A stretch of 37,208 nt of DNA from Acidimicrobiales bacterium (GTDB lineage Bacteria; Actinomycetota; Acidimicrobiia; Acidimicrobiales; VFJN01): the NCBI GenBank assembly GCA_046595835.1, contig JBKJSO010000084.1, forward strand, positions 1 through 37,208, written 5' to 3'. Of the stretch, positions 7,201-22,271 are shown one piece after another. The position numbers and the translations under genes are program-made. Every line of letters starts with the position of its first letter. Within the stretch, counting starts at the first letter, position 1. The notes under the pieces were generated by a model that was not told where the DNA came from, did not search any database, and saw only the letters and a list, made by a program, of their open reading frames with translations.

Positions 7201-8553
7201 GCCGGGCACCTCGAGCACACGCGTGCCATCGTCGGTGGCGTCGAGGTGGGCACCGGCCTCCACCCAGTAGCGCGGGATCGCCTCGGGTCGGCGCAGGTTC
7301 TCGGGCACGAAGGTCCGCTGCCACAGCGGCGGGAGGCTGAGGACCACGAGGCCGATCACCACGGCGCTGACGGGGAGCGCGGCCCTGGGCACCCGCCGGC
7401 CGAGCGCCTCTGCGCCGGCGCCGAGCATCACGCTCAGGGCGAGGATGACGAGGGGCGCGGCGCGCGGCATGCTCCGCATGGCCATGCCGACATCGCTGTG
7501 CAGGAACGAGCGCAGCCCGCGACCGAAGGGTGGTGGGTGGTCGTACGGGTACACGCCGACGGCCAGCGTCAAGCCGACGGCGGCGAGCAGCACCACGAAG
7601 GACCGCTCCCGCCAGCGAGCGAGGGCGCCACCGGTCAGCGCGAGCACTGGGATCGAGAACGTGGCCAGCAGCAGCCACACCGAGGTCTGGAACGGGCGGC
7701 TCGGTCCTACCCAAGGGCCGAGCGCGTCATCGCCATAGAAGAACCAGTAGCCCAGCCCGCGGAGCACCTCCTGCGCCGAGGATGCAGCTGCCGTCGTCTG
7801 CACCGACTCCGTGTAGCGGTGCACGTCGATGCCATTGGTGGCCTGCACCGAGAGCCCCACGATCCACCAGGCGCTGGTGGCCAGCGTGAGGACGCCGATG
7901 CGGGCGACGGCGGCGGTAGCGCGACCGACCGTCTGCTCCCGAGTGGCCAGGGCCCACAGCACCCACAGCGCAGGGCCGATGCCGACCAGCAGGATGGAGG
8001 TGGCGTTGCTGGTGCCCACCGTGGCGACGACGAGGGCGAAGGCCGCGGGGTGGCGCCAGCTCCTCGTGCGCAGGGCGCGAGCGGTGAGGGCGATCATCCA
8101 GGGCAGTGCGGCGAACGGGAGCAGGATCACCGAGATCCGCACCGCGATGGTGAGCAGGTACGGCGTGAGCGCGTAGGCGCACATCGCCACGCCCACGCCG
8201 TGCCCGCGCCACCCGTAGGTGCGCAGGAGATAGCGCATGCCGAGGCCGGCCGCCAGCATGATCGAGCCGAGCCACAGCCGCTGGGCCACCCAGTCGGGTG
8301 CGCCGGCGTGCTGGAACAGCCAGTAGTAGGGCCCCATCGGCCACAGGAAGCCGATGTTCTGGTGGGTGACCGTGCCCATCCCCACGTGGGGATCCCACAT
8401 CGACCAGGCGCGGGCCAACATCCGATCGGGATCGAGGTAGAGGTACGACTTGGTGTCGGCCACCACCTGGCCGGGTGAGGTGGCCAGCAGCGGGAGGTAG
8501 CAGAGCGCGCCGAACGCGAGGAGCGGGCTGGCCCGACGGAGGCGAGCGCTCAA
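4240..8553 (-). CDS. AftD-like alpha-(1->3)-arabinofuranosyltransferase family protein (DUF3367-type giant GT-C), paralog 1, 1437 aa
   Basis: N-terminal DTKSYLYLDP...WDPHVGMGTVTHQNIGFLWP...GAPDWVAQRLWLG block typical of the AftD family, followed by many TM helices. The large soluble region has two discoidin/CBM-like DGDxxTxW motifs, and there are C-terminal TM helices. TTG start overlaps the GT4 stop (TTGA). Confidence 0.85.
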   Translation of the reverse strand: MSARLRRASPLLAFGALCYLPLLATSPGQVVADTKSYLYLDPDRMLARAWSMWDPHVGMGTVTHQNIGFLWPMGPYYWLFQHAGAPDWVAQRLWLGSIMLAAGLGMRYLLRTYGWRGHGVGVAMCAYALTPYLLTIAVRISVILLPFAALPWMIALTARALRTRSWRHPAAFALVVATVGTSNATSILLVGIGPALWVLWALATREQTVGRATAAVARIGVLTLATSAWWIVGLSVQATNGIDVHRYTESVQTTAAASSAQEVLRGLGYWFFYGDDALGPWVGPSRPFQTSVWLLLATFSIPVLALTGGALARWRERSFVVLLAAVGLTLAVGVYPYDHPPPFGRGLRSFLHSDVGMAMRSMPRAAPLVILALSVMLGAGAEALGRRVPRAALPVSAVVIGLVVLSLPPLWQRTFVPENLRRPEAIPRYWVEAGAHLDATDDGTRVLEVPGTDFTSYRWGTTVDPVTPGLTDRPIVARELQPMSGVAAWNLLKAFDGRLQANIAERSTVAPMARTMRAGQLLVRDDLQYEHYDTPRPRDLWRFLLGAPGIGEATEFGAPTANVAQRPAPMLDELELSSPRGGAEPFPVTVLPVTRALPIVTAKATTAPVVVAGDGDGLVDSAAAGLIDGTELLRYSASMSDVEVRAALDAGAILVVTDSNRRRGERWGTIRFTNGYTEPAGLAPLAIDRSDARLPVFLTATDDARTVAIHRGGITANATSYGGRNEYLPEDRPANAVDGDPTTSWRASRDDPVEGQRLELRTTRPVTTSTLTFLAPPPPINRWVSRVALRFDGGPQVAVDLNDRSRSGTGQTVDIGRRTFSRLTIEVLADTAGRHARSGGLTSTGFAEVRVGDLRLDEAIRPPVDLLRRAGPASSDHALAVVLTRLRSAPTDVERLDEEPALVRLLDLPTSRGFALSGTARLSPRAADALLDRQLDPSAGTIAASSSRMAGPAARASAALDGDRATAWTPAFGEQAGQWIEVTSPSPRVVDHLDLTLLADGRHSVPTQLGIEVDGQRMTSAAVPTIADGARPGTTRTASIALPGPVSASRLRVTIEAVRGIDTPDWRTHKLRTMPVAVAELGAAGFERPAPRGAFATGCRTDLVTLDGHPLPVQVTGTAADAVTGAPLPLTSCTGAPVDLTSGDHELRAARGSDTGVDIDRLVLRSGAGGAPTVDPTSTLRAAARASASSPPPTTTVVHQSADAVDLRVSGARPDSPFWLAFGQSWNTGWHATIDGKDLGAPTLVDGFANGWQISPRRASFQVSLRFTPQHRVDLALWGSLAAALVCIGLTVRRPAGSKRTRRPAASDWEAGGPDSLTLASVDTAGPPLSYPAAAAVAVALAGLGAALVSPVVALLVGLLTLVVARGALPRRVTALAAPAAMGASASYVVLTVLRHHIAPGLDWAAELHRAHPIAWFAVLAIVVDAIVIALRGARRR

Positions 8554-9737
8554 CGGCGGTGGCGGGCGGCCTGCCCGGCCAGCGTGCGCATGACGCCGAG
8601 GGCGGTCGTCTCCCAGGAGAGGGCGGCGGCGCGTGCGATGCCGCCGGCTGACAGTCGCTCACGGAGTGCTCCATCGGTGAGGACCAGCGCGAGCGCGGCG
8701 CCCAGCTCGTCGGCCGTCCCGGGAACGAGCAGCCCGCTCACCTCGTGGCGAACCGCATCGGTGTGGCCGGCGATGCGGGTGGCCACGGCCGGCGTGCCAC
8801 ACGCGGCCGCCTCGGTGAGCGAGAGCCCCCAACCCTCCCGGGCCGACGCCGATGACGCCACCCAGGCCCCTCGGTAGAGCCGCACGAGCCCGGGCTCGTC
8901 GACGCGACCCGTGAGGTGCACCCAGCTCTCCGCATCGAGGCGGCGGATGACGGCGTCGAGGCGCTCTCGCTCGTAGCCCTCGCCGACGATGGTCAGCGTG
9001 AGGCCCGGCACGGACGCGCGGGCGACGGCGGCCGCTTCGATGAGGAGGTCATGGCGCTTCACGGGCACGAGGCGGCCGACCGCGACGATGCTCGGGTGGG
9101 AGGTCTTGGTGCCCCCCGGCGTGAACGCCGTGCCGAGGCCGTTGTGCACCACGTCGATCTGGCGGGACGGGATGTGCAGCAGCGACACGATCTCGTCGCG
9201 GGCCGACTCGGACGGGGTGATGATCCGCGAGCGGCGATAGACGGTGGGTGCGATGCGCCGTTCGATCGTGTCGCCGATGCGGGCCAGTGTGGGGTTGTCG
9301 TCGCCGAGCACCATCTGCCACATCTCGGCGTGCACGTGGTGGAGCATCACGGCTCGAGGACCTCGGTACCAGAGCGGCGAGAAGAACGGCATCCCGTTCC
9401 AGATCTCGAGAAGCGCGTCGGAGGGGCCGTGGCGACCTGCGAGCTCGGCCAGGGCGGCCCGGGGGAACACGAGGTAGCGACCTGCTCTGCGGATCACCCG
9501 GTAGCCGTCGCGTGTCACCGTGTGGGGGTGCCCTGAGGCGAACGAGGAGCGCCAGGTGACCTCGATCCCGGCGGCTGCCCAGTGGCGAGCCAGCTCGGCT
9601 GCGTGCACCTCGGAGCCGCCCGCCTCCACATCCTCGAGGTCGCGCCAGGACAGCAGGTGCACCCTGTGGAGGCCGGCGGCGGCGGCGAGGTCCCCGATCT
9701 TCGCGAGCCCGTCGGAGCTCGGAGACGACGCAGGCAT
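8550..9737 (-). CDS. Glycosyltransferase family 4 (GT-B fold, Glycos_transf_1 type)
   Basis: C-terminal EGWGLSLTEAAACGTPAVATRIAGHTDAV (EX7E region). 395 aa. Confidence 0.9.
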   Translation of the reverse strand: MPASSPSSDGLAKIGDLAAAAGLHRVHLLSWRDLEDVEAGGSEVHAAELARHWAAAGIEVTWRSSFASGHPHTVTRDGYRVIRRAGRYLVFPRAALAELAGRHGPSDALLEIWNGMPFFSPLWYRGPRAVMLHHVHAEMWQMVLGDDNPTLARIGDTIERRIAPTVYRRSRIITPSESARDEIVSLLHIPSRQIDVVHNGLGTAFTPGGTKTSHPSIVAVGRLVPVKRHDLLIEAAAVARASVPGLTLTIVGEGYERERLDAVIRRLDAESWVHLTGRVDEPGLVRLYRGAWVASSASAREGWGLSLTEAAACGTPAVATRIAGHTDAVRHEVSGLLVPGTADELGAALALVLTDGALRERLSAGGIARAAALSWETTALGVMRTLAGQAARHRR

Positions 9738-9779: not shown

Positions 9780-10520
9780 TCAGGCGGTGCGGCGGCCCCG
9801 GCCGACGAGCCGCTTCGCTCGGTCTCGCACGCCCCACCACGTGACGAGGCCGAGCTCCTCGACCATCACTGCCATCGACATCTTCGACGCGCCCCGCACG
9901 CGATCGGTGAAGATGATCGGCACCTCGGCGAGGGGTCGACCCGTACGTGAGATCCGATACGCCGTCTCGATCTGAAAGCCGTAGCCCTTGGCCCGAGTGC
10001 TGAAGACGTCGATCTCGGACAAGGTGGACGCGTCGTACGCACGAAAGCCTGCCGTGGCATCGTGCACGGACATGCCCAGCGCCGCGCAGGCGTAGCGGTT
10101 GCCCCACTTGGACAGGGCCCGGCGGTGCCAGGGCCAGTGGGGGATCGACCCTCCGGGCACGTAGCGCGAACCGATGACGGCCGCCGAGCCGGCATCGAGG
10201 GCCGCGAGCAGCGACGGCAGGGCGGCCGGGTCGTGCGACAGGTCGGCGTCCATCTGCACGAGGCGGTCATAGCCTCGGTCGAGTCCCACCCGGAACCCGT
10301 CTCGGTACGCGTTGCCCAGACCGTCCTTCTTCGGGCGCACCAGCACGTCGATCTGACCGAGGTCGGCGGCTGCTGCTCGGGCCAGTGCGGCGGTGCCGTC
10401 TGGGCTGCTGTCGTCGACGACCAGCACGTCGACGTCCGGGGCGGCCGCTCGCACGCGCGTGAGCACCTCGACGACGTTGGCGGCTTCCTCGTAGGTCGGC
10501 ATGACCACCAGCGTGCGCAC
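9780..10520 (-). CDS. ppm1: Polyprenol monophosphomannose synthase (Ppm1 catalytic-domain-like, DPM1-type GT2)
   Basis: PTYEEAANV, VVDDSSPDGT, QMDADLSHDP, GSRYVPGGSIPHWPW, GFRAY and KGYGFQIE follow the Ppm1/DPM1 pattern closely. It is a stand-alone 246-aa catalytic domain. Confidence 0.8.
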   Translation of the reverse strand: MRTLVVMPTYEEAANVVEVLTRVRAAAPDVDVLVVDDSSPDGTAALARAAAADLGQIDVLVRPKKDGLGNAYRDGFRVGLDRGYDRLVQMDADLSHDPAALPSLLAALDAGSAAVIGSRYVPGGSIPHWPWHRRALSKWGNRYACAALGMSVHDATAGFRAYDASTLSEIDVFSTRAKGYGFQIETAYRISRTGRPLAEVPIIFTDRVRGASKMSMAVMVEELGLVTWWGVRDRAKRLVGRGRRTA

Positions 10521-10572: not shown

Positions 10573-12255
10573 TCAGCACCGCGTGTAGAGCTCGTACAAG
10601 CCGCGCTTCGGGTCGAAGCGGTCCACGCCGAACCGACGCACCAGGCAGAAGCTCCGCGCCAAGACCCGGTTGGGCTCGTCGGGTCCGAACAGCAACGAGT
10701 CGTTCGGCTCGTTCCAGTCGTCGCGGATCGTGGAGAGGATCACGACGTCGGCTCGGCGCAGCTCGTCGGCCAGCCCCGAGTCCGGGTCGTTGGCCACGCC
10801 GGGATCCATCTCGATGAAGCGGGTGCCGGGCACGAGGTGAGGGAGGAGGTAGTAGAGGAACGCCTCGCTGTAGGGGGTCTTGCGCAGATCGCCTGGCCCG
10901 ACGATCAAGCGGTCACCCGGGTGGGTGACCTGCTCGACCACCGGGAGCATCTCGTTGACAGCCGCCACCGCGTCGCTGCGCTTGTAGGGGAAGGTGCGCC
11001 CGTCGTGCTCGATGATGCCCTCGGTGCGACGATGCCCCAGCGACTGTGCGGTGGCCTCCGCATAGCTCCGGTAGGTGAAGAACGGCGCCACCACCAGGAG
11101 GAGAAGCGCCGGTAGGGCCACGACGGCCAGGCCCGCTCGCCAACCCGTCGGCCCAACTTCGGAGGGAGCGCGCCCCCGGGCGCGCCACAGCTCCACGACC
11201 GCGGCCGGGAGCACCGCGAAGGCCACGCAGCTCACCCATGCGAGGTGCGTGGAGTCGGGGCGCTGGACGGCCTGCGGGAACAGGCCGACTGCGAACGCGG
11301 CGATGGCGAGCAGGCGCCGCTCACCGGTGCGACGCCTTGCGATCACCCCGGCGATGATCAGCACCACGCCCACCACGAGCAGCGCGAAGAACCACAGCCA
11401 GAGCTGCCGCGGCCCGCTGGGCGCCGGCAAGGGCCACGGAGGCTGGTCGAGCGCGCCCGCGCCCTGGAGGAAGCCGTCGAAGTGCCCCGGGTGGGGAGGG
11501 ATGGGCAGCTGGCGCCCCCCGCGCAGGGCAAAGACGGGCTCGAGCACGAGACCGTTCAGTGACGCCCACGGTCCGGCCATGACCACCTGAACGAGGTAGG
11601 GGGAGCAGCCCACCGCGAACCCGAGTGCCAGTCGACGGCGAGCCGAGCGATCGAGGGCCAGCCACACCACGAGACCAGCCGCGCCGAGCGCGAGCACCAG
11701 GTCGAGTCGATAGAGGAGTGCGGCGCCGGCGAGGAGGCCAGCCAGCAGGGCCCGCCGCCCTCGACGGGACGAACCGCCCTCGGCCTCGACCGCCTCCGCG
11801 GCGCTGCACAGCGCCCACAGACCGAGGGCCACGCCGCCCACCCAGGCCATGGCGCTCAGTCCTGAGGGGGTGATCACCATCATGGCGCCGAGGCACGCGC
11901 CCCCGATGGCCACCCACGGTCCCCACGGCCGCAGCAGCCGGTACAGGCCGAAGGCGACGCCGACGTGCTGCAGGTAGCCGACGGCCCGCTCTGCGCCGAG
12001 GCTCACACCGAACACGGCGAACACACCGGCGAGCACCCAGAGGCTCCCGGGGCCGTAGAGGTGGAGGAAGTCGCGGTTGGGCACCTTTCCCGCGAGGACC
12101 ATCTCGGGGAAGGTGAGCATGAACCCCTCCTCCATCGGGGTTCCCTGCGTCAGCCAGAGGCCGCGAAGCGGCGGCAGGGTGGCGAGGAGCACGATGGACG
12201 GGCCCACCCAGGCGACGAGGCCGGTCGCGCGCGGAGGGGGCACCGGGCGCGTCAT
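10573..12255 (-). CDS. Polytopic membrane protein with C-terminal soluble domain; family not recognised; GT-C-like candidate
   Basis: Only the C-terminal part of the listed 888-aa ORF is credible, because the upstream part is antisense to the UbiA gene. Start is either ATG 12255 (MTRPVPPP) or ATG 12300 (MVATVARG). There are 10 or more hydrophobic segments, an acidic first-loop motif PMEEGFMLTFPE, and a soluble tail of about 140 aa. Confidence 0.6.
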   Translation of the reverse strand: MTRPVPPPRATGLVAWVGPSIVLLATLPPLRGLWLTQGTPMEEGFMLTFPEMVLAGKVPNRDFLHLYGPGSLWVLAGVFAVFGVSLGAERAVGYLQHVGVAFGLYRLLRPWGPWVAIGGACLGAMMVITPSGLSAMAWVGGVALGLWALCSAAEAVEAEGGSSRRGRRALLAGLLAGAALLYRLDLVLALGAAGLVVWLALDRSARRRLALGFAVGCSPYLVQVVMAGPWASLNGLVLEPVFALRGGRQLPIPPHPGHFDGFLQGAGALDQPPWPLPAPSGPRQLWLWFFALLVVGVVLIIAGVIARRRTGERRLLAIAAFAVGLFPQAVQRPDSTHLAWVSCVAFAVLPAAVVELWRARGRAPSEVGPTGWRAGLAVVALPALLLLVVAPFFTYRSYAEATAQSLGHRRTEGIIEHDGRTFPYKRSDAVAAVNEMLPVVEQVTHPGDRLIVGPGDLRKTPYSEAFLYYLLPHLVPGTRFIEMDPGVANDPDSGLADELRRADVVILSTIRDDWNEPNDSLLFGPDEPNRVLARSFCLVRRFGVDRFDPKRGLYELYTRC

Positions 12256-12300: not shown

Positions 12301-12306
12301 CGCGCC

Positions 12307-13260
12307 GTGACGGACGAGACCCGGGCCCCTGCTGTCGAGCGTCCGTCGCTCGGCAGCAGCGCTCCAGCCGGCGGGCTGCGTCCGCTGATCCGCCTCCTGC
12401 GCCCTCGCCAGTGGATCAAGAACGGGCTCGTGCTCGCGGCGCCGGCCGCGGCAGGCGTGCTCGACCAGGGTCACTACCTCGGTCGGGCCCTCATCGTGCT
12501 GGTGTCCTTCTGCCTCGCCGCCAGTGGCACCTACTGCCTGAACGACGCCGCGGATGTCGAGGCCGACCGCGCCCACCCCACCAAGCGGAACCGACCCGTG
12601 GCGGCCGGCGAGGTGAGCGTCGGCAGAGCCCGGGCCGTGGGCGGGGGGCTCCTCGTGCTCGGCGTCGGGCTCGGCATCGCGGTCGGGTCGTGGGAGGCCA
12701 GTGCCATCACCGCCGTCTACGTCGCCCTCACCACCGCCTACACGATCTGGCTCAAGCACGTGCCCGTGGTCGACATCGTCATGATCACGGCGTTCTTCGT
12801 CATCCGGGCCGTGGCGGGTGTGGTGGGCACCGACATCCCGCTGTCCGACTGGTACCTGATCGTGGCCTCGTTTGGCGCGCTGTTCATCGTGGCCGGCAAG
12901 CGAAGCATCGAGCTGCGCCTGGAGGATGCCGTGGGACACCGCGCCGCGCTGGCCGGGTACACGCCTGGCTTCCTGCTGTACGTCCGGTCGGTGGCCTCTG
13001 GCGTGGCGATGCTGGCCTACTGCCTGTGGGCATTCGAGAAGGCGCACCTCTCGGACAGCTCCGTGCCCTGGTTCCAGCTCTCGATCGTCCCGTTCGTCCT
13101 GATCATCCTGCGCTACGCGCTGGTCCTCGAGACCGAGGAGCGCCGAGGCCCCGAGGAGATCGTGCTCGAGGACCGCCAGCTGCAGGTGCTCGGGGTGCTG
13201 TGGGCGGCCGTGTTCGCCGCCGGTGTGTACCTCGGCCATGCCCCGCCGCTCGTCAGCTAG
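12307..13260 (+). CDS. UbiA-family decaprenyl-phosphate 5-phosphoribosyltransferase-like enzyme (Rv3806c type)
   Basis: I place the start at in-frame GTG 12307 (MTDETRAP...). RPRQWIKNGLVLAAP and NDAADVEADRAHPTKRNRPVAAG are the hallmark motifs of the Rv3806c subfamily. About 8 TM helices. Confidence 0.85.
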   Translation: MTDETRAPAVERPSLGSSAPAGGLRPLIRLLRPRQWIKNGLVLAAPAAAGVLDQGHYLGRALIVLVSFCLAASGTYCLNDAADVEADRAHPTKRNRPVAAGEVSVGRARAVGGGLLVLGVGLGIAVGSWEASAITAVYVALTTAYTIWLKHVPVVDIVMITAFFVIRAVAGVVGTDIPLSDWYLIVASFGALFIVAGKRSIELRLEDAVGHRAALAGYTPGFLLYVRSVASGVAMLAYCLWAFEKAHLSDSSVPWFQLSIVPFVLIILRYALVLETEERRGPEEIVLEDRQLQVLGVLWAAVFAAGVYLGHAPPLVS

Positions 13261-13298
13261 CAGTCCCCGCTTTGCTCAACATGCGGCTTCGGGCGTCG

Positions 13299-13335
13299 CT
13301 GCGCTCCTGCCTACGCCTGGGCGGCGGGAGCGCAG
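13299..13335 (+). repeat. Inverted repeat forming a 13-bp GC-rich stem (one G-U pair) with an 11-nt loop, in the UbiA-to-downstream-operon spacer
   Basis: ctgcgctcctgcc (13299-13311) pairs with ggcgggagcgcag (13323-13335). No U-tract follows. A TAGCAT -10-like hexamer sits at 13355-13360. Confidence 0.35.
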
Positions 13336-13369
13336 TCCCGCTAGCTCCCGCCGGTAGCATCGCTTCTTC

Positions 13370-13675
13370 ATGCTGATGTTCGAGCGCCGCGTCGTGGCAG
13401 AGCTGACCACCTCCGCCGATCCTCAGCTCCGGGGGCAGGTCGAGCAGTGGGTCGACGGCACGCTGCAGGAGATGTCCGACGTGCTCCGCCTCGGCGTCGT
13501 CCTGGAGTCGCTGCTGCTCACCGCCTGGGCGGGCGTGCGCCGACCACCCGATCTCCACGGGCTCCTCGGCTGGCTCGACCGCAGCCCGATCTCGCTGCTG
13601 CGCTCCTACCCCCGTCTCTTTCGGTCGCTGGTGCTGTTCGGCGAGCTCGAGCTGGCCGACGCGGACCGCCGATGA
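13370..13675 (+). CDS. Small hypothetical protein (101 aa) translationally coupled to the GMC oxidoreductase
   Basis: Very high GC3 across the ORF. Its stop overlaps the GMC start (ATGA at 13672-13675). One hydrophobic stretch (LRLGVVLESLLLTAWAGV). No motif recognised. Confidence 0.6.
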   Translation: MLMFERRVVAELTTSADPQLRGQVEQWVDGTLQEMSDVLRLGVVLESLLLTAWAGVRRPPDLHGLLGWLDRSPISLLRSYPRLFRSLVLFGELELADADRR

Positions 13676-15096
13676 CCTCCCTCCACACAGAGGTGCTCGT
13701 GATCGGATCGGGAGCCGGCGGGGCCACCACCGCGATGGTGCTCGCAGAGGCGGGCCGGAGCGTGCTCGTGGTGGAGGAGGGCCCCGAGATCGAGCCCGGG
13801 TCACTCACCCCGTTCAGCCTGCGGGAGATGGAGCAGGCCTATCGCCACCACGGTTCGTCGGCCGCCCTCGGCAGCCCGCCGATCGCCTACGCCGAAGGGC
13901 GCTGCGTAGGAGGCAGCACCGAGGTGAACAGCGGGCTCTGGCATCGCCTGCCGGGCGCCCTGGCCGAGGAGTGGCGGATCCGCTTCGGCCTCGACGACTT
14001 CACCCCGGAGGCGCTCGACCGCTACGCCGCCCGCATCGAGGCCCTGGTGCCCGTGCACCCCGTGCCCGGCGCGCCGCCCCGCTCGTCGGCCATCCTCGAG
14101 GAGGGAGCGACCAAGCTCGGCTGGCGGGCCGTCGAGTTCCCCCGCGCCTTCACCTACGACGTCAACGGTCGGGGCACGAAGCAGACGATGAGCCGCACGC
14201 TGCTGCCGCGCGCACGCGCTGCCGGCGCCACCGTGCTGGCCGACACGGCGGTGCGGAAGCTTCGCATCCAGGGCGACCGTGTCTTGGGAGCGACGTGCTC
14301 CCGGCGCCGAGCCGACGGAACGTCGGAGCAGATCCACATCCGGGCCGACCACGTGGTGGTGTGCGGGGGCGCCGTGCAGAGCCCCGCCCTCCTGCAGCGC
14401 AGCGGTGTGCGGCGGGGGATCGGCCACGGGCTCAAGATGCACCCCACGATCAAGATCGCGGCGCGCTTTCCGGGCCCGGTCGACCACGACGACGTGCCGA
14501 TGCACCGCATCACGGAGTTCTCGCCGCACCTCGCCATTGGCGGTTCGGCCAGCCGTCGTGGGCACGTGGCCCTCGCCTTGGCGGACAGCGGCGCTGACAT
14601 CGCCGACGCGCTCGCCGACTGGGAGCACGTGTTCGTGTACTACGCGGCGATCCGCAGTGACCTCGGCGGCCGCGTCCTCGCCGTGCCCGGGATGCGAGCC
14701 CCGCTCGTCACCTACCGCCTCACCGACTCCGATCTCAGCCGCCTGGCCCGGGGGCTGGTGCACCTGGGCGAAGCGCTGCTGGCGGCCGGAGCCACCGAGC
14801 TGTACCCGTCGATCGAAGGCGGCCAGGTCGTGCGCCGCCCCGAGGAGCTGGTGGGCTGGTGGGATGCTGTCGACCGCTCCCGCACCAACCTGATGACCGT
14901 GCACCTCACCTCGAGCATCCGCATGAGCAGCGATCGCTCCAAAGCGGGCACCGACGGCTTCGGGCGCGTGTGGGGCGTCCCCAACCTCCGGGTGAACGAC
15001 GCCTCGCTCCTTGCCGACGCGCCGGGCGTCAACCCGCAGGCCGCCATCATGACCATCGCCCTGCGCAACGCCGAGCACCTCCTCGCCACCACCTGA
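13672..15096 (+). CDS. GMC-family FAD-dependent oxidoreductase
   Basis: I place the start at ATG 13672 (MTSLHTEVLVIGSGAGGATTA). It has the GxGxxG FAD fold, EEG, CVGGSTEVNSG and VVVCGGAVQSPALLQRSG. The C-terminal catalytic region has LMTVHLTSS and NDASLLADAPGVNPQAAIMTIALRNAE. Confidence 0.9.
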   Translation: MTSLHTEVLVIGSGAGGATTAMVLAEAGRSVLVVEEGPEIEPGSLTPFSLREMEQAYRHHGSSAALGSPPIAYAEGRCVGGSTEVNSGLWHRLPGALAEEWRIRFGLDDFTPEALDRYAARIEALVPVHPVPGAPPRSSAILEEGATKLGWRAVEFPRAFTYDVNGRGTKQTMSRTLLPRARAAGATVLADTAVRKLRIQGDRVLGATCSRRRADGTSEQIHIRADHVVVCGGAVQSPALLQRSGVRRGIGHGLKMHPTIKIAARFPGPVDHDDVPMHRITEFSPHLAIGGSASRRGHVALALADSGADIADALADWEHVFVYYAAIRSDLGGRVLAVPGMRAPLVTYRLTDSDLSRLARGLVHLGEALLAAGATELYPSIEGGQVVRRPEELVGWWDAVDRSRTNLMTVHLTSSIRMSSDRSKAGTDGFGRVWGVPNLRVNDASLLADAPGVNPQAAIMTIALRNAEHLLATT

Positions 15097-15109
15097 GACC
15101 CGGAGCACG

Positions 15110-16150
15110 ATGACCGACCTGAACGACCAACCGCGCCCGCGCACCATCGTCATCACGGGCGCCGCAGGCTGGCTGGGCCAGAACCTCGTGCGCGAGGTGG
15201 CGCCCGAGCGCGACGCCGTGCGCTGCCTCGTGCAGAGCCACGAGGAGGCCACGCTGCTCGCCCTCATCTCCCCGGCCGTCCAGCCGGTGGTGGGCGACGT
15301 GCGCGACCCGACGGCCCTCGATGCGCTCTTCGAGGGAGCAACCGGCGCCACCGTCGTGCACGCGGCCGCGATCATCCACCCCCTGCGCCGCGTGCAGGAG
15401 CTCCACGACGTGAACGTGGGCGGCACCCAGCTGGTGCTCGATCGGGCCCGTCGGGCCGGCGCCGGCCGGGTGGTGCACATCTCGTCGAACTCTCCCTTCG
15501 GTGCCAACCCCACGCCGACGCACCGGTTCACGGAGGACTCGCCCCTCAACCCGTACCTCGGTTACGGGCGGTCCAAGGCCGACGCCGAAGGGCTCGTGGC
15601 CACGGCCCAGGAGCGGGGCGACCTGCAGACGGTGGTGCTGCGGCCACCGTGGTTCTACGGACCCTTCCAGCCGGCCCGGCAGACGCAGTGGTTTCGGGCC
15701 GTGCGCCGCGGCCGGTTCCCGCTGGTGGGCGACGGCACGAACCGCCGCTCCATGGTGTTCACGGGCAACCTGGTGCACGGCGTGCTCCGAGCCGAGGTGG
15801 CGGCCCAGGCGGTGGGCAACGCCTACTGGATCGCCGATGGCGACCCGCTCGACATGCGCTCGATCCTGATGACCGTGCGGGAGGCGCTCATCGCCGAGGG
15901 GCTCCCGGTCTCGGGCGGGCAACCGCGCATGCCGCGCCTGGCCGGCGTGGTCGCCGAGCACCTCGACACCGTCCTGCAGGGGCGGGGCCGCTACGTGCAG
16001 GCCCTGCACGTCCTCGGGGAGCTGAAGGACACGATCGCCTGCGACATCTCGCGGGCCCGCGCGGAGATCGGCTACGACCCGCCTACCGATCTGCTCGCCG
16101 GCATGCGGGCCAGCATCCGCTGGTGCCTCGAGCGGGGGCAGGACCTGTGA
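15110..16150 (+). CDS. Extended SDR, NAD-dependent epimerase/dehydratase family (copy 1)
   Basis: ITGAAGWLGQNLV Rossmann motif, HISSNS, and catalytic YGRSKADAE (YxxxK). 346 aa. Confidence 0.9.
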   Translation: MTDLNDQPRPRTIVITGAAGWLGQNLVREVAPERDAVRCLVQSHEEATLLALISPAVQPVVGDVRDPTALDALFEGATGATVVHAAAIIHPLRRVQELHDVNVGGTQLVLDRARRAGAGRVVHISSNSPFGANPTPTHRFTEDSPLNPYLGYGRSKADAEGLVATAQERGDLQTVVLRPPWFYGPFQPARQTQWFRAVRRGRFPLVGDGTNRRSMVFTGNLVHGVLRAEVAAQAVGNAYWIADGDPLDMRSILMTVREALIAEGLPVSGGQPRMPRLAGVVAEHLDTVLQGRGRYVQALHVLGELKDTIACDISRARAEIGYDPPTDLLAGMRASIRWCLERGQDL

Positions 16151-17181
16151 GCCGGACGGTTCTCATCACCGGTGGCAGCGGGTACTTCGGTTCGATCCTG
16201 GTCGATCGGGCCCTGGCCCTCGGTGATCGCGTTCGGATCCTCGACGTCAACCCGTCCGACCCCCGCCCGGGCGCCTCCGTGGAAGCGATCGTGGGCGACG
16301 TGCGCGACGACGCCGTCGTGCGCGATGCCAGCCGCGGGGTCGACGTGGTGCTCCACAACGTCGCACAGGTGCCCCTCGCCAAGGACCGCGACCTCTTCTG
16401 GTCGGTGAACGTGGTGGGTACCGCCAACGTCTTGCTGGCCGCACGCGAGGCAGGCGTCGGCAAGGTGGTGCACACCTCGTCGAGCGCGATCTTCGGCATC
16501 CCGGAGCACAACCCTGTGGTAGAGGAGACGCCCCCCCACCCGCTCGAGGCCTACGGGCGGGCCAAGCTCGAAGCGGAGGTGCTGTGCCGGGAGGCGCTGG
16601 CCACGGGGCTCGACGTGTCGATCGTTCGTCCCCGCACGATCCTCGGCCACGGGCGGCTGGGCATCATGGCCATCCTGTTCGAGTTCGTGGCCGAGGGTGC
16701 TCCGGTCTACGTGCTCGACGGGGGCCACAACCGCTACCAGTTCGTGCACGCCGAAGACCTCGCGGATGCCTGCTTGCTGGCTGGCGCTCGCGTCGGTGCG
16801 TCGACCTACAACATCGGCACCACCGACTTCGGCACGATGCGCGAGACGTTGCAGGCGCTGGTCGACCATGCGGGCACCGGGTCCCGTGTCCGGTCGCTGC
16901 CGTCGGCGCCGGCGAGGGTGGGGATGCAGGCGGTATCGAAGCTCGGGCAGGCACCGTTCGCGCCCTACCACTGGCTCCTCTACGGCGAGTCGCTGTGGTT
17001 CGACACGACCCGGGCGCGCGAGGAGCTGGGCTGGGAGCCGACCCACTCGAACGCCTCGATGGTCATCGAGTCGTATGAGTGGTTCCTGGCGCATCGATCC
17101 GAGCTGGGCGCCCAGGGCAAGTCGCACCACCAGTCGCCGGCGCGCCTCGGGCTCCTCAAGCTCCTGAAGCGCCTGCCCTAG
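16147..17181 (+). CDS. Extended SDR, NAD-dependent epimerase/dehydratase family (copy 2)
   Basis: GTG start at 16147 overlaps the stop of copy 1 (GTGA). ITGGSGYFGSILV, HTSSSA, catalytic YGRAKLEAE, and a basic amphipathic C-terminus LGLLKLLKRLP. Confidence 0.9.
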   Translation: MSRTVLITGGSGYFGSILVDRALALGDRVRILDVNPSDPRPGASVEAIVGDVRDDAVVRDASRGVDVVLHNVAQVPLAKDRDLFWSVNVVGTANVLLAAREAGVGKVVHTSSSAIFGIPEHNPVVEETPPHPLEAYGRAKLEAEVLCREALATGLDVSIVRPRTILGHGRLGIMAILFEFVAEGAPVYVLDGGHNRYQFVHAEDLADACLLAGARVGASTYNIGTTDFGTMRETLQALVDHAGTGSRVRSLPSAPARVGMQAVSKLGQAPFAPYHWLLYGESLWFDTTRAREELGWEPTHSNASMVIESYEWFLAHRSELGAQGKSHHQSPARLGLLKLLKRLP

Positions 17182-17191: not shown

Positions 17192-19084
17192 GTGGTGGTC
17201 TCCTCGGTGGCTGAGACGCCGCGCCCCGACCCGGTCGACGCCGACGCCGACCTGTCCGCGGCGCAGCGCGGGCCCCGCTGGACCGTGGGGGCGTGCCTTG
17301 CTGCCCTCTGCGTGCCGCTCGTGGTAGCGCTGGCCGGGTTCCGGCGCCACACATGGGCCCCCGTGCTCGACCTCGCCATGACGGAGCTGCGCGTGCGCGA
17401 CGTCGGAGGTCGGCACACACCGCTCATCGGGCTCCCGGGCCGGATCGGCACGATCGGGCAGCAGGGGAGCCATCCCGGGCCGGTGAGCTTCTACGCGCTG
17501 GCGCCCACGTACCGCGCCCTGGGCGCCACCGCATGGGCGCTGCAGGTCGCCACCTTCGTGATCCACGCCGTCGCCATGGGGACGGCCCTGCTCATCGCCC
17601 GTCGCCGAGGCGGGGCTCGCCTCGTGCTCGGCGTGGCCGTGCTCCTCGCCGTGCTCACCGCGGGCTACGGCGGGGGCGCGCTCACCGAGCCGTGGAACCC
17701 CTATCTGCCGGTCATGTGGTGGGTGGTCGTGCTCCTGGCGGTGTGGTCGGTGCTCTGCGGCGACGTGGCCATGCTCCCGGTCGCCGTGGTGGCGGCCTCG
17801 TTCTGCGCGCAGACGCACGTGCCCTATCTCGGGCTGGCGCTGGGCATGGGCGGGCTCGCCACCGCGGCAGTGGCGGCGCGGTGGTGGCGTCATCGCGAGG
17901 AACGGCGTGTGGTCCTTCGGTGGAGCCTCCTAGCGCTCGGCCTCGGCGTGCTGCTGTGGCTGCCCCCCTCGATCGACCAGGTGCGACACGATCCGGGCAA
18001 CTTCCGTCAGCTGATCGACCACTTCTCGGATCCCTCCGAGCAACCCAAGGGGCTGGCCTACGGCGTACAGGAAGGGGTGCGCCACTTCGACATCGCCCAC
18101 CTGGTCCGTGCCGATGTGATCGATCCGGGACGCCTTGTCACGAGAGCCCCCGGGAACCGACCCACGTCGTCGCGCGGCATCGTGCTCGTCGGCATCTGGG
18201 CCCTCGCCGCGGTCGTCGCCACCCGGCGCCGCCGGGCATCCCTCATGCGTCTGCACCTCGTGGTCGGGGCGGGCCTGGTGCTCATGGTGCTCGCCATCAG
18301 CCGCATCTTCGGGACGGTCTGGTACTACCTGACGCTGTGGGGCTGGGCTATTGGCCTCCTGGCGGCCCTCGCGGTCGTCTGGACGGCACTCGACCTGCTG
18401 GACGAGCGCTGGCCGCCCGCCCGGCGGACGGCGCTGGCCACGGTCGGCACCGCCGCGCTGGCTGCCCTCGGGATGGCCATCGTGATCAGGTTCTCCGTGG
18501 ACGCGTGGAACAGCCCCCACGCCGACGCCTCGGTGGCGGCTGAGCTGGCGGCGGTGGTCGACGACGTCGCCGCCGGGCTCGACGGCGGCGCGGGGGTGGC
18601 GACGGGTCACACGGGTCGGTACCTCATCGCGTGGGACGACACGTTCCACATCGGCTCACAGGGCTTCGGTCTGCTCAGCGAGCTCGAGCGACGTGGCTTC
18701 GACGTTGGCGTCGACTACGGGAAGCGGGTGCCGGCCACGAGCCACCGCGTGCTCGACGCTCACCTGGCGACCGCAAGGATCGAGCTTGCGACCGGCACGC
18801 ACGTGGCTCGTTGGCGAGATGTCACCGGTGCCGTCGAGGTCGCCACCTTCGACCCTCGCGACGGGTCCGCTCGAGCCGAACAGGCTCGGCTTCGGCGGGA
18901 GGTGATCGGCACCCTTCGGCGCCTCGGCCTCGACGAGCTCGTGCACGAGGTCGACGACAACCTCTTCGGCGCCGCGATCGACGAGCGAGTCCCGGAGGCG
19001 ACGCAGCAGCAGATGGGACGCATGCTCGAGCTGGGCACGCCGATCGCGGTCTTCGTGCTCCCCCCCGACGCCGTCGATCCATGA
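17192..19084 (+). CDS. Large polytopic membrane protein, unrecognised family, tandem paralog A (630 aa)
   Basis: About 10 or more TM segments plus a soluble C-terminal domain of about 190 aa. It shares the blocks DLAMTELRVRDVGGRHTPLIGL, SHPGPxSFY, LTEPWNPxLP, CAQTHVPYL and HDPGN with the next gene. Confidence 0.75.
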   Translation: MVVSSVAETPRPDPVDADADLSAAQRGPRWTVGACLAALCVPLVVALAGFRRHTWAPVLDLAMTELRVRDVGGRHTPLIGLPGRIGTIGQQGSHPGPVSFYALAPTYRALGATAWALQVATFVIHAVAMGTALLIARRRGGARLVLGVAVLLAVLTAGYGGGALTEPWNPYLPVMWWVVVLLAVWSVLCGDVAMLPVAVVAASFCAQTHVPYLGLALGMGGLATAAVAARWWRHREERRVVLRWSLLALGLGVLLWLPPSIDQVRHDPGNFRQLIDHFSDPSEQPKGLAYGVQEGVRHFDIAHLVRADVIDPGRLVTRAPGNRPTSSRGIVLVGIWALAAVVATRRRRASLMRLHLVVGAGLVLMVLAISRIFGTVWYYLTLWGWAIGLLAALAVVWTALDLLDERWPPARRTALATVGTAALAALGMAIVIRFSVDAWNSPHADASVAAELAAVVDDVAAGLDGGAGVATGHTGRYLIAWDDTFHIGSQGFGLLSELERRGFDVGVDYGKRVPATSHRVLDAHLATARIELATGTHVARWRDVTGAVEVATFDPRDGSARAEQARLRREVIGTLRRLGLDELVHEVDDNLFGAAIDERVPEATQQQMGRMLELGTPIAVFVLPPDAVDP

Positions 19085-20904
19085 CGGTGTCGCGCTGGAT
19101 GCCTCGTTGGCTGCTCCCCATGGTCTCAGCCGCGGTGCTGGCCCCGCTCGCGGTGGCCGTCGTGGTGCAGCGCAACGCCCACTGGCATCCCGTCTACGAC
19201 CTCGCCATGACGGAGATGCGGGTACGAGACGTCGGCGGGCGTCACACGCCCCTCATCGGCCTCCAGGGGCGCATCGGACCCACGGGGAGCCACCCGGGTC
19301 CGCTCTCGTTCTACCTGTTGGCCCCGGTGTACCGACTGCTCGGGTCGTCGGCCTACGCCCTGCAGGTGTCCACCGCCGCCTTCCACGGCCTGGCCGCGAT
19401 GACCGCCCTGCTCATCGCCCGACGGCGCGGCGATGGCCGCGTGCTCATCGGCGTCGGGATGATCCTGCTCCTGCTCATGCAGGGCTACGGGCTGGGCCCG
19501 CTCACCGAGCCGTGGAACCCGCATCTGCCTCTGCTGTGGTTCGTGGCGTTCCTGCTGGCCGCCTGGGCCGTGCTGGAGGGGGATCTGGTGATGCTGCTCC
19601 CCGCCGTGGCGGCGGCGTCCCTCTGCGCGCAGACCCATGTGCCGTACCTGGCCGTCACCGTCGGCCTGGGCGGCGGCCTGGCCGTGGTGGCGACGGCCTA
19701 CGCGTGGAGAGCCCGCTCCCGTCCCGGACGGCCGGGCTGGCGCTGGCTGGTGGGTGCGGCGGCACTCGGTGTGGTGCTCTGGATCCCGCCGCTGATCGAC
19801 GAGGTCGTCCACGACCCCGGCAACCTCAGTCAGATCGTCGATCACCTCGGCAGCCCCACCGACGCTCCCATCGGCGTCCGGGCCGCGGCCAAGATCATCG
19901 TTGAACGCCTCGATGCCTGGCAGCTCGTCGTGGGTGAGACCCGGCACCCGGGCACCTATGTCCGCACCCTCAGCGGGCCGGGGCCCACCCGGGATCGGGG
20001 CTTCGTGACCCTGGCCGCGTGGCTTGGCTGCGTTGTGGCGTCCGTGGTGCTCCGTCACCGTCGGCTCCTCGCCCTGCACCTGCTCGTGGGCAGCGCGTGG
20101 GCTGTCGGCATCGCAGCCGTCTCGCGGATCTACGGCGTGCCCTGGCCCTACCTGACGCTGTGGGGGTTCGGGATCGGGGCCCTCATGGCGCTGTCGATCG
20201 CGGCCACCGCCGTAGCGCTGCTGCTGCGGTGGTGGCCCCGCCTGGCCGTCGTGTCCGGCGCTCGCCCGTGGAGCGTGGCCGGTGTCGTGGTGCTGGGCGC
20301 GCTGTCGGCAAGGATGCTGGTCATCGCCCCTGACGCCACCACCGACACACCCGACCAGACGGAGCAGCTCGGTCGGTTGCTGCCCGACACGCTGGCCGCC
20401 CTCGACCGCGGCGTCGGGGCGGCGACTGGTCACGACGGTCGCTACTACGTGTACTGGGACGATGCCACGAACGGCGGCTCGGAGGGGATCGGACTCGTGA
20501 ACGAGCTCGTCCGGCACGGCTACGACGTCGGTGTCGATGCCCGGAACGGGCTGCAGATCTCGCCGTACCGCGTCCGTCGGCCAGCCGACTCGACCGCCCG
20601 GATCGTCGTCGCGAGCGGGGGGTGGATCGAACGGTGGGCCGCGGAGCCCGACGCCACGATGGTGGCCAGCGACGATCCCCGAAGCCCCGCCGAGCGGCAG
20701 GAGTTCGAGCACGTGCGGGCTGAGGCGGTCGCCGACCTGCGCGCCATGGGGCGCGACGACCTGGTCAACCGGATCGACACCGATCTGTTCGATGTGGCGC
20801 TGAACGGGGGAGTCCCGCCGGGCGTCGGGCTGCTCCTCGGGCGCATGATCGGCATCGGCGTGCCCGCCGCCGTGTTCGTCCTGCCGAAGGCGGCGGCCGC
20901 GTGA
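19081..20904 (+). CDS. Large polytopic membrane protein, unrecognised family, tandem paralog B (607 aa)
   Basis: ATG 19081 overlaps the stop of paralog A (ATGA). It has the same conserved blocks as paralog A. The listed longer ORF (from 18631) runs through the paralog A coding region and was trimmed. Confidence 0.75.
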   Translation: MTVSRWMPRWLLPMVSAAVLAPLAVAVVVQRNAHWHPVYDLAMTEMRVRDVGGRHTPLIGLQGRIGPTGSHPGPLSFYLLAPVYRLLGSSAYALQVSTAAFHGLAAMTALLIARRRGDGRVLIGVGMILLLLMQGYGLGPLTEPWNPHLPLLWFVAFLLAAWAVLEGDLVMLLPAVAAASLCAQTHVPYLAVTVGLGGGLAVVATAYAWRARSRPGRPGWRWLVGAAALGVVLWIPPLIDEVVHDPGNLSQIVDHLGSPTDAPIGVRAAAKIIVERLDAWQLVVGETRHPGTYVRTLSGPGPTRDRGFVTLAAWLGCVVASVVLRHRRLLALHLLVGSAWAVGIAAVSRIYGVPWPYLTLWGFGIGALMALSIAATAVALLLRWWPRLAVVSGARPWSVAGVVVLGALSARMLVIAPDATTDTPDQTEQLGRLLPDTLAALDRGVGAATGHDGRYYVYWDDATNGGSEGIGLVNELVRHGYDVGVDARNGLQISPYRVRRPADSTARIVVASGGWIERWAAEPDATMVASDDPRSPAERQEFEHVRAEAVADLRAMGRDDLVNRIDTDLFDVALNGGVPPGVGLLLGRMIGIGVPAAVFVLPKAAAA

Positions 20905-22271
20905 CAGCCCACCGATCGAACGCGGCGACCCCGGCGAGGTCGGCGCGCGTGGAGCTGACCGCCGGACAGCGGCGCTACCTGATCGCCACGGTCGCGACCG
21001 CGTTCGGCCTGCGGATGGCCTGGGCCCTGTACGCCCGGGGAGCCGCTCCCGTCGAGTGGTTCCACTCCGGCGACCAGTACTCCTACTACCACTACGGCAG
21101 CGAGATGGCCCGGGGGCGTGGGTACATCAGCTACTTCACCGGCAGCGCCAGCGCGTACTACCCGATCGGGTACCCGGGGCTGCTGGCGGCGCTCTACTTC
21201 GTGGTGCTGCACACCCCCATCCCGGACCACCTCATGATGGCGACCGCCCTGCTCCACGTCGTGGCCGGCACGGCCTCCGTGTGGTTCGTGTTCCTGATCG
21301 GTCGGAGCATGTCCAGCGTCCGCACCGGCCTGGTGGCGGCCACCCTCCTCGCGGTGTTCCCCAACGTCATCTACCAGGTGTCCACGGTGCAGCTCGAGAC
21401 CGTGTTCATCGCGGCGGTCTCGGGTGCGCTTGCCGTCATCGTCACCCACGACTGGGTCGCCGGCCCGCCCAGCACGCGCCGCCTGCTGGCCTTCGGGGTG
21501 GCGCTGGGTGCCGCCATCCTGGTGCGGCCCTTTGCCGCCGTGCTCCTGGTGGGTCTGGCTGGCGCGCTGCTCGTCACCCGCGTCGGGTGGCGGCGGACCG
21601 CGCTCGGCGTGGCGCTGCCCCTTGCTGTCGTCATTGCGATGTCGGTGCCCTGGACCATCCGCAACGCCGTCGAGATGCACGCGTTCATCCCGTCGTCCAC
21701 GAACATGGGCGACACGCTCTGCCTCGACCGCAACCTCGACGCGCAGGGCGGCTTCCGCTTCGCGGATCACGACGGGTGCGTCGACCCGGGGCTGCCCGAG
21801 GTGGAGCGCAATGCCGGCAACACGAAGAAGGCGATCCACTTCGTGATCGATCACCCCGGCCGGGAGCTGCTCCAGATCGGGCGGCGGGGCCGGTTGATGT
21901 TCATCGACGACCATGACGGCATCGAGGCGGTCCAGACCCTCGGCGGCGGCCTGGTGCTCTCCCCCCGGGCGGCCAGCGACGCGTCGAGCGTCGGCGACCG
22001 GTACTTCTACGGCATCGTGGGCCTGGCGGTGCTCGGCCTGCTGAGCTTCTTCCGACGAGACCGCCGGCCGCAGCGGCTGCTTGTGCTGTCGGGGCTCGTC
22101 GGGCTGCTCGTGATCCCGCTGCTGCTCTGGGGCAACCCGCGGTTCCACCTGCCGCTCGTGCCGTTCATCGCGCTGTCAGCGGCGTCGCCGATCGTCGCCG
22201 TCTGGGATCGGCTCCGACCCGTCCGGGTCACCGCGGATCCCGCAACCCCGGTGGAATGCGTGTCGGCCTGA
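20901..22271 (+). CDS. GT-C membrane glycosyltransferase, ArnT/PMT-like (PMT_2 / GT39-GT83 type)
   Basis: GTG 20901 overlaps the upstream stop (GTGA). The first-loop motif SGDQYSYYHYGSEMARGRGY resembles the acidic/aromatic loop of ArnT/PMT-like enzymes. About 11 TM helices. Confidence 0.7.
   Translation: MTAHRSNAATPARSARVELTAGQRRYLIATVATAFGLRMAWALYARGAAPVEWFHSGDQYSYYHYGSEMARGRGYISYFTGSASAYYPIGYPGLLAALYFVVLHTPIPDHLMMATALLHVVAGTASVWFVFLIGRSMSSVRTGLVAATLLAVFPNVIYQVSTVQLETVFIAAVSGALAVIVTHDWVAGPPSTRRLLAFGVALGAAILVRPFAAVLLVGLAGALLVTRVGWRRTALGVALPLAVVIAMSVPWTIRNAVEMHAFIPSSTNMGDTLCLDRNLDAQGGFRFADHDGCVDPGLPEVERNAGNTKKAIHFVIDHPGRELLQIGRRGRLMFIDDHDGIEAVQTLGGGLVLSPRAASDASSVGDRYFYGIVGLAVLGLLSFFRRDRRPQRLLVLSGLVGLLVIPLLLWGNPRFHLPLVPFIALSAASPIVAVWDRLRPVRVTADPATPVECVSA

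Follow-up and report, generated by a model that had tools for sequence, protein, structure and literature searches.

In this study, we analysed a 37,208-nt stretch of DNA (72% G+C; hereafter the window) from a metagenome-assembled genome (MAG) of an uncultured member of the Acidimicrobiia, a host that is neither a member of the Corynebacterineae nor a mycolic-acid actinobacterium. Reading frames were chosen by third-position G+C (GC3), and the 29 called open reading frames (ORFs) of the window were scanned against Pfam. The placement in the Acidimicrobiia agrees with the GMC protein described below, which is 100% identical to a protein from an NCBI MAG labelled Acidimicrobiales bacterium. Five genes lie one behind the other on the plus strand, encoding a UbiA-family prenyltransferase (12307..13260), a 101-aa protein (13370..13675), a GMC-family FAD oxidoreductase (13672..15096) and two extended short-chain dehydrogenases/reductases, SDR1 (15110..16150) and SDR2 (16147..17181). 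The 101-aa ORF and the GMC gene share a 4-nt ATGA overlap, 13 nt separate the GMC gene from SDR1, and SDR1 and SDR2 share a 4-nt GTGA overlap; the gap between UbiA and the 101-aa ORF is 109 nt. A sequence-only reading of this DNA had listed the same five genes on one strand and called them tightly packed or overlapping, and both statements hold. The last four genes form a cassette that probably converts ribose on a lipid carrier to a different pentose (arabino, xylo, lyxo or other) without DprE1/DprE2, the enzymes of the Corynebacterineae. In profile searches of the kind that the earlier reading had proposed, UbiA, the GMC protein and both SDRs pass their family models.

The UbiA protein (317 aa, GTG start) scored 351.8 bits against NF008978, the NCBIfam equivalog model of decaprenyl-phosphate phosphoribosyltransferase (cutoff 207), and matched the structure of the Mycobacterium tuberculosis enzyme (8j8j) at 1.7e-60 over residues 19–309. 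The motifs LLRPRQWIKNG and CLNDAADVEADRAHPTKRNRPVAAG were read in it, and its RPRQWIKN together with NDAADVEADRAHPTKRNRPVAAG conforms to the subfamily motifs RPxQWxKN and NDxxDxEADRxHPxKxxRPxAAG. The earlier assignment to the decaprenyl-phosphate phosphoribosyltransferase subfamily, made from the motifs, is thus borne out by the motifs, the curated model and the structure match. By family membership (curated cutoff plus motifs), UbiA is predicted to be a polyprenyl-phosphate 5-phosphoribosyltransferase of the Rv3806c/DPPRS type, dependent on phosphoribosyl pyrophosphate (PRPP).

The GMC protein (474 aa) scored 106.9 bits against Pfam GMC_oxred_N (1.8e-30; cutoff 23) and 64.1 bits against GMC_oxred_C (2.6e-17; cutoff 24.6). 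Its N-terminal FAD motif (GxGxxG) reads VIGSGAGG at residues 10–17. H411 and N454-P-Q are invariant among its close homologues, and the equivalent H555 and N598 are invariant in 88 GMC sequences from three phyla; on the precedent of cholesterol and pyranose oxidases, we take H411 and N454 to be the catalytic His/Asn pair. A close homologue with an established unrelated substrate would have counted against the sequence-only reading, but none was found, and the best match to a solved structure by sequence, a sugar oxidase, reached only 2.8e-12. Its top fold neighbours, fructose 5-dehydrogenase (FAD subunit of the membrane-bound enzyme), C-glycoside 3-oxidase and pyranose oxidase, oxidise secondary alcohols of sugars, and cholesterol oxidase, a further fold neighbour, oxidises that of a sterol. 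The GMC sugar oxidases and dehydrogenases (Gluconobacter fructose dehydrogenase, the gamma-alpha complex of Burkholderia FAD-glucose dehydrogenase, C-glycoside 3-oxidase and pyranose 2-oxidase), which have in common the GMC fold and the oxidation of sugar secondary alcohols, are the best structural matches, yet their sequences are only 15–20% identical to that of the window protein. We propose that the GMC enzyme oxidises a sugar hydroxyl on lipid-linked ribose.

The 101-aa ORF (GC3 0.90) gave no match in Pfam even at E = 1; in 72 of 77 related loci, the GMC gene is directly preceded by this small ORF. GMC relatives of about 600 aa carry an N-terminal extension of 125–170 residues, and a profile of the small-ORF family (66 sequences) aligned with this extension in hhalign with a probability of 98.15% (E 6.6e-14), whereas shuffled controls gave no score. 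Because it is homologous to this fused N-terminal domain, the 101-aa protein, as judged by the profile comparison, belongs to the GMC enzyme as a subunit or domain, namely as its N-terminal helical domain split off as a separate protein; in Verrucomicrobiota the two are fused. In an AlphaFold2 model of a fused member (pLDDT 89, pTM 0.91), the N-terminal domain is a five-helix bundle that precedes a standard GMC fold; a model of the window GMC protein, built from a shallow alignment, had a pLDDT of 57 and was not used. In some FAD sugar dehydrogenases, too, the gene of a small subunit lies immediately upstream of that of the catalytic subunit. The small protein here differs from theirs in having no twin-arginine translocation (Tat) signal and no Pfam family and in its five-helix bundle; moreover, there is no cytochrome subunit, and the surrounding genes serve biosynthesis, not respiration or catabolism. 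A role as a Tat 'hitch-hiker' subunit of the FAD-glucose dehydrogenase type was rejected, the 101-aa protein having no twin-arginine signal and one weakly hydrophobic segment.

Both SDRs (344–346 aa) match Epimerase (3.9e-33 for SDR1 and 1.3e-39 for SDR2) and 3Beta_HSD and are of the extended, not the classical, type. SDR1 carries TGAAGWLG and YGRSK and SDR2 carries TGGSGYFG and YGRAK, so that the Epimerase domain, TGxxGxxG and Ser/Thr plus YxxxK of extended SDRs are present in both, and the full GalE-type motifs are kept across 53 homologues of SDR1 and 56 of SDR2. The two are 31% identical; their earlier description as paralogous extended SDRs with intact YxxxK sites agrees with the Pfam and motif results. 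The nearest models (OleD, HpnA and SdmB) all score below their family cutoffs, including HpnA for the HpnA/GalE-like SDR2 (139 bits). SDR2 ends in a conserved amphipathic tail, 'ShHQSpvrlGlL..lkrLP', which fits a membrane-bound substrate. The best PDB match of SDR1 is a dTDP-glucose 4,6-dehydratase; this role was rejected, since the TDE triplet, which is catalytic in RmlB, is replaced by SNS.

A search of 1.8 billion representative proteins yielded 722 cluster representatives of the GMC subfamily at E<1e-30. Four cluster representatives are GMC-SDR fusion proteins, three of which (P0249, P0309 and P0380) have an SDR1-type C-terminal half; the SDR half of P0249 is 47% identical to SDR1 (5e-105) versus 28% to SDR2. 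The existence of these GMC-SDR1 fusion proteins indicates that the GMC flavoprotein works with SDR1. We propose that SDR1 is its keto-reductase partner and SDR2 a second epimerase or reductase.

When one genome per species was scanned, 366 species had a relative of the GMC gene, and the best 80 of the 366 were used for the comparison of loci. Nearly all of these 80 are labelled Acidimicrobiia or unclassified Actinomycetota, two being labelled otherwise. In the 41 Acidimicrobiia loci of this set with full 10-kb flanks, the gene of the small subunit is present in 37, that of SDR1 in 36 and that of SDR2 in 36. More distant GMC relatives (43–50% identical) occur in the N-fused form in Verrucomicrobiota and in the unfused form in Cyanobacteria, with the gene order UbiA-GMC-SDR1-SDR2 in an Opitutus MAG and small-GMC-SDR-SDR in Lyngbya. 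In the Lyngbya locus (L087), a 73-aa ORF was called between both SDR genes (12560–12781).

To this distant clade belong 80 metagenome loci, which have no taxonomy attached and whose genes are simple ORFs, so that the adjacency counts are approximate. Conservation among them is limited to the GMC gene, a pair of SDR genes in each locus and a gene of the UbiA family. Where 2 kb or more of upstream sequence is available, 37 of 44 loci contain a UbiA-family ORF, and where both flanks are available, 21 of 24 do; this ORF precedes the GMC gene or follows the SDRs. The co-occurrence of UbiA-family, GMC and two SDR genes, which the sequence-only reading had suggested looking for, is thus positive and wider than expected. 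An RPxQWxKN-type motif was found in 38 of 51 UbiA-family ORFs of this clade, the rest being truncated or variant. The distant-clade UbiA is typically about 480 aa long, with a HAD domain at its N-terminus and a DPPRS-like domain at its C-terminus; in Opitutus, the former matches PF12710 at 2.1e-5, while the latter contains the motif NDVxDxEADRxHPxKxxRPxAAG and gives a match of 1.1e-32 to the mycobacterial enzyme. Because the linkage is kept in two gene orders and two phyla, there is good evidence that the product of UbiA is what the module processes.

The cassette and UbiA lie in a cluster of envelope-glycan genes. Divergent from UbiA runs a minus-strand operon of memA, a GT2, a GT4, an AftD-type GT-C, a hydrolase and an NT5C/HAD phosphatase. 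The first of these, memA (10573..12255, 560 aa), encodes a polytopic membrane protein and distant PMT_2-type GT-C (hhalign 91.7% to the PMT_2 family); the GC3 plot puts its start near 12255, and the divergent starts of memA and UbiA are about 50 bp apart (12256–12306). A consensus scan of positions 12100–22400 for a sigma-70-like promoter found none. The GT2 (9780..10520, minus; Pfam Glycos_transf_2 1e-26) is like polyprenyl-phosphate-sugar synthases, with weak NCBIfam matches of the AglJ, PpgS and ArnC types, and the GT4 glycosyltransferase (8550..9737, minus) matches Pfam Glycos_transf_1 at 4.3e-32. The AftD-type GT-C (4240..8553, minus; 1437 aa) matches Pfam GT-C_AftD at 1.7e-88 (297.7 bits, cutoff 26) as well as CBM_AftD and F5_F8_type_C (discoidin). 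The operon is closed by the gene of an NT5C-family phosphatase of the HAD superfamily (2891..3544, minus; Pfam NT5C 5e-36), which recurs beside the glycan cluster in other MAGs (three looked-up UbiA contexts). This protein may be the 5-phosphatase for polyprenyl-phospho-ribose-5-phosphate, a candidacy that we infer; a pairwise comparison with the HAD domain fused to the Opitutus UbiA showed no similarity.

Downstream of the cassette, mem1 (17192..19084, plus; 630 aa) encodes a polytopic protein of about nine transmembrane segments and putative GT-C, with hhalign values of 94.7% to memA and 79% to the PMT_2 family; this family occurs in 52 GMC loci. It is followed on the same strand by its paralogue mem2, which starts at 19081 (ATGA overlap with mem1) or 19120 and ends at 20904, and by a PMT_2-type GT-C glycosyltransferase (20901..22271, plus; Pfam PMT_2 1.3e-08). 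A 522-aa flavoprotein encoded on the minus strand (22272..23840) is like the eukaryote-type UDP-galactopyranose mutases: it scored 743 bits against NF005548 (PRK07208, an uncharacterised family) and matched PDB 4dsg at 1.5e-22 over its full length (residues 25–482), and its closest solved relatives are from Trypanosoma and Aspergillus rather than of the bacterial Glf type. Present in 23 GMC loci, it may supply an NDP-furanose to the same glycan. A second AftD-type GT-C (23938..27612, plus; 1224 aa) matches Pfam GT-C_AftD at 6.6e-82 (275.9 bits, cutoff 26), and the AftD family is present in 31 of 78 GMC loci. Beyond it, memB (27599..29503, minus) encodes a 634-aa polytopic protein of about nine transmembrane segments with a weak match to the putative glycosyltransferase model LA_3751/2 of NCBIfam; it is possibly a further GT-C, although it was not found in related GMC loci and its membership of the system is uncertain. 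UbiA and GT-C enzymes (AftD-type twice, PMT_2) are thus encoded together in the window, which holds about seven or eight GT-C-like proteins, two of the AftD type and four or five further putative ones. So many GT-C-like proteins suggest a polymer rather than side-chain decoration, and the AftD homologues together with the mutase-like flavoprotein suggest an arabinogalactan-like furanose polymer.

Several of these neighbours accompany the module elsewhere. In the fully flanked Acidimicrobiia loci, mem1/mem2 are present in 29 of the 41, the GT4 in 27, AftD in 26, memA in 23 and the GT2 in 20, and unbiased clustering of all neighbour genes gave the same partner ranking. UbiA homologues of 63–70% identity were seen in six contexts: in all six, UbiA and the memA-GT2 operon point away from each other and AftD adjoins in most, while directly downstream of UbiA lies small-GMC-SDR-SDR in four and a mem1-like protein alone in two. 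The Acidimicrobiia system is one gene network that is often split over two or three loci.

DprE1 is a VAO-type flavoprotein (FAD_binding_4 plus ALO) and DprE2 a classical SDR, and systems of their type also comprise NoeH/NoeO of Azorhizobium and the pilin system of Pseudomonas PA7. The sequence-only reading had seen nothing DprE1-like in the 37 kb, and indeed FAD_binding_4 was found in none of the 29 scanned ORFs of the window. Nor was a FAD_binding_4 (DprE1-type) neighbour present in the six UbiA contexts, and the family is absent from the Pfam lists of neighbours in the looked-up UbiA and GMC contexts. DprE2 is a classical SDR of about 250 aa, whereas SDR1 and SDR2 are of the extended type. 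A further SDR of the window (1027..1806), which is classical and had gone unmentioned in the sequence-only reading, was considered as a hidden DprE2 and rejected: it is a generic protein matched best by FabG-like models, is absent from related loci and is not syntenic with the module.

Based on gene content, family memberships, conservation, fusions and linkage, all of which are shown above, we propose with moderate confidence that the cassette tailors polyprenyl-phospho-ribofuranose by oxidation and reduction, in analogy with DprE1/DprE2 and with the SDR epimerase ORF13 of Citrobacter. UbiA, by its family membership, would move ribose-5-phosphate from PRPP to polyprenyl phosphate, and a phosphatase would then take off the 5-phosphate, this being a domain fused to UbiA in the Verrucomicrobial version and maybe the NT5C/HAD protein here. 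On the cytoplasmic side of the membrane, the GMC flavoprotein with its two pieces would oxidise a ring hydroxyl of polyprenyl-phospho-ribofuranose to a ketone, which SDR1 would reduce with inverted stereochemistry, following the logic of DprE1/DprE2 through unrelated protein families. SDR2 might perform a GalE/ORF13-like epimerisation or a reduction at another carbon. The resulting polyprenyl-phospho-pentofuranose would be flipped across the membrane, where the AftD-type and PMT_2-like GT-Cs would use it as the donor for a furanose-rich envelope glycan. In this scheme we infer which substrate is used, at which carbon it is attacked, which product results and in what order the steps follow.

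The proposed module resembles DprE1/DprE2 of the Corynebacterineae in that it would act downstream of the same UbiA-type phosphoribosyltransferase step, would combine flavoprotein oxidation with reduction by an NAD(P)H-dependent enzyme and would deliver a donor to GT-Cs that include AftD homologues. It differs from them in its flavoprotein, which belongs to the GMC family and has an extra helical subunit instead of being of the VAO/FAD_binding_4 family, in having two extended SDRs in place of one classical SDR, and in its hosts, which are Acidimicrobiia, Verrucomicrobiota and Cyanobacteria. The coupling of oxidase and reductase also takes another form: DprE1 and DprE2 form a complex in mycobacteria (PMC9993113), whereas here GMC-SDR1 fusion proteins occur.

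A second known system is that of the Citrobacter youngae O antigen, one of the three-component pentofuranose systems (PPPRS, flippase and GT-C) found with Gram-negative O antigens; it comprises ORF15 (PRP-PPPRS), the SDR epimerase ORF13, a MATE flippase and the GT-C ORF12 (Kelly et al., PNAS 2024, PMC11127046). ORF15 is a characterised phosphatase plus polyprenyl-phosphoribose synthase of HAD-UbiA architecture, and ORF13, a single GalE-like extended SDR, converts undecaprenyl-phospho-ribofuranose into the xylofuranose donor (PMC11127046). Like the system proposed here, it starts from polyprenyl-phospho-ribofuranose made from PRPP, tailors it with a GalE-like extended SDR and ends with a GT-C transferase, and the HAD-UbiA fusion of ORF15 has the architecture of the UbiA of the Verrucomicrobial cassette; the likeness of ORF13 to SDR1 and SDR2 is drawn from the GalE-type motifs described in PMC11127046 only. 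However, ORF13 acts alone, whereas here the GMC protein, the small subunit and a second SDR near-universally accompany the SDR. The statement of the sequence-only reading that no characterised example of this gene combination was known therefore has to be given up for the SDR half, for which ORF13 is a precedent (PMC11127046), and stands for the GMC half: our literature search found no publication linking a GMC enzyme to a polyprenyl-phospho-pentose pathway. The logic of the pathway is known from DprE1/DprE2 and ORF13; the proposed use of a GMC flavoprotein with two extended SDRs would be new.

As for the product, homologues of DprE1/E2 go with arabinofuranose glycans and ORF13 with xylofuranose glycans, lyxofuranose not being known, and donor promiscuity of GT-Cs among pentofuranoses has been demonstrated (Kelly et al., 2024, PMC11127046). 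We tentatively suggest, as a possibility that we hold with limited confidence, that the cassette represents a third route to diversify lipid-linked pentofuranose donors, of independent origin and present in at least three phyla, which would achieve either a two-centre inversion (e.g., to polyprenyl-phospho-D-lyxofuranose, never seen in a solved glycan) or the synthesis of D-arabinofuranose for AftD-type transferases without DprE1/DprE2.

Several observations weigh against a tailoring module for the UbiA product. Of the 41 fully flanked Acidimicrobiia loci, no more than 5 have UbiA at 10 kb or less from the GMC gene, so that it is not a constant partner of the module in this class, and no UbiA was found within 10 kb in the Lyngbya locus. 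In about 10 Acidimicrobiia loci, the module stands behind lipid-type genes. While the Citrobacter system has a MATE flippase, the Pfam scan of the window recognised no flippase of the MATE or GtrA/SMR type. Since an ORF13-type SDR alone epimerises such a substrate, the need for a flavoprotein would be left unexplained, and three redox enzymes exceed the demand of a single epimerisation. Finally, the whole-cell sugars of one cultured Iamiaceae strain were rhamnose, ribose, mannose and galactose, with no arabinose or xylose reported; we regard this single strain as uninformative. Of the earlier proposal of a non-orthologous oxidation-reduction module, what gains support is the part that rests on co-occurrence with UbiA, GMC-SDR1 fusions and a GT-C-rich cluster, whereas the low linkage to UbiA in Acidimicrobiia speaks against it.

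In the lipid-type context (L044, 2925–9608; also L053 and L032), the genes on the strand of the module encode a fatty-acyl reductase (NAD_binding_4)-HAD fusion, a zinc-dependent alcohol dehydrogenase, a SnoaL-like protein, a LarA-like protein (Lar_N) and a PlsC acyltransferase.

The first of two alternatives that we regard as improbable accepts lipid-linked ribose as the substrate and assumes other chemistry: the GMC enzyme would oxidise the primary C5 hydroxyl to an aldehyde or acid, and the SDRs would act as decarboxylating 3-dehydrogenase and keto-reductase, much as in UDP-xylose synthase or in the C4-demethylation of sterols, or would enable C4 inversion, and a tetrofuranose, a pentofuranose of the L series or a uronic donor would result instead of a C2/C3 epimer. 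It would account for three redox enzymes being near-universally together. Both SDRs match sterol-4-alpha-carboxylate 3-dehydrogenase (6jkg), and SDR2 also UDP-glucuronate decarboxylases, but these matches are generic for extended SDRs and far under any family cutoff. Likewise, primary-alcohol oxidases (choline oxidase, hydroxymethylfurfural oxidase and an alcohol oxidase) are among the fold neighbours of the GMC enzyme, yet the top ones, fructose 5-dehydrogenase, C-glycoside 3-oxidase and pyranose oxidase, act on secondary alcohols. Moreover, no lipid-linked sugars of such a kind are known.

An equally doubtful alternative is that the substrate of the module is not what UbiA makes but, for instance, a polyprenyl-phospho-hexose from the GT2, a polyprenol carrier or a glycolipid anchor, UbiA being a mere neighbour in the same envelope-glycan regulon. 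The Acidimicrobiia counts, in which both the GT2 and memA exceed UbiA, the lipid-type loci, the lipid-related nearest models of the SDRs (OleD, HpnA and SdmB) and the presence of cholesterol oxidase among the GMC fold neighbours are in its favour. However, the distant clade keeps only UbiA-family genes, typically as the HAD-UbiA fusion, besides the SDRs, with no GT2 conserved, and two gene orders that differ from each other both retain the linkage to UbiA. Loci with the lipid-type context belong to one sub-lineage only, and because this sub-lineage also shares an unrelated glutamate synthase neighbour, the context may be inherited synteny.

Least likely is that the two SDRs alone tailor the donor as self-contained ORF13-like epimerases, the GMC enzyme and the small subunit being accessory (re-oxidising a stalled intermediate, or salvage), for although ORF13 suffices for the step from ribofuranose to xylofuranose in Citrobacter and both SDRs have full GalE-type motifs, the GMC-SDR1 fusions and the near-universal co-occurrence of the four parts argue for an obligatory joint function.

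DprE1 is a heavily pursued tuberculosis drug target, and DprE1/DprE2 are regarded as the bacterial way to arabinofuranose donors. If the cassette is an oxidise-and-reduce module for lipid-linked ribofuranose, this widespread solution by an unrelated flavoprotein and SDRs would clearly exemplify non-orthologous displacement in the biosynthesis of the envelope. The supply to AftD homologues outside the Corynebacteriales would also be explained; such homologues have been noted earlier in other actinobacterial orders, including an Acidimicrobiales species, without a donor pathway. The 'auxiliary epimerase' concept for pentofuranose donors introduced in 2024 would be extended, and undescribed furanose glycans would be expected in the abundant yet little-cultured soil and water Acidimicrobiia and Verrucomicrobiota and in filamentous cyanobacteria. 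Should the possibility of a novel donor or of D-arabinofuranose prove true, the envelopes of Acidimicrobiia would contain arabinogalactan-like furanose polymers. The proposal would give a role to a family of 100-aa proteins and to a GMC subfamily that were so far without annotation, and its four soluble or peripheral enzymes would be suited to the existing synthetic farnesyl-phospho-pentofuranose substrates.

Beside the distant-clade cassettes, a transporter of the Polysacc_synt/MatE type, the flippase class of the Citrobacter system, was seen directly upstream in one locus (L152, 7927–9474). Most other distant cassettes are flanked by polytopic proteins of 500–600 aa without a Pfam family; a Pfam search with ten such membrane proteins gave mostly no match. 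An Acidimicrobiia-like module (65–67% identity) was seen in the two loci of the best-80 set that are labelled otherwise, in MAGs named Bifidobacterium breve and Burkholderiales (L081 and L074). These contigs are probably mis-binned; L081 additionally has AftD, the GT4 and both SDRs.

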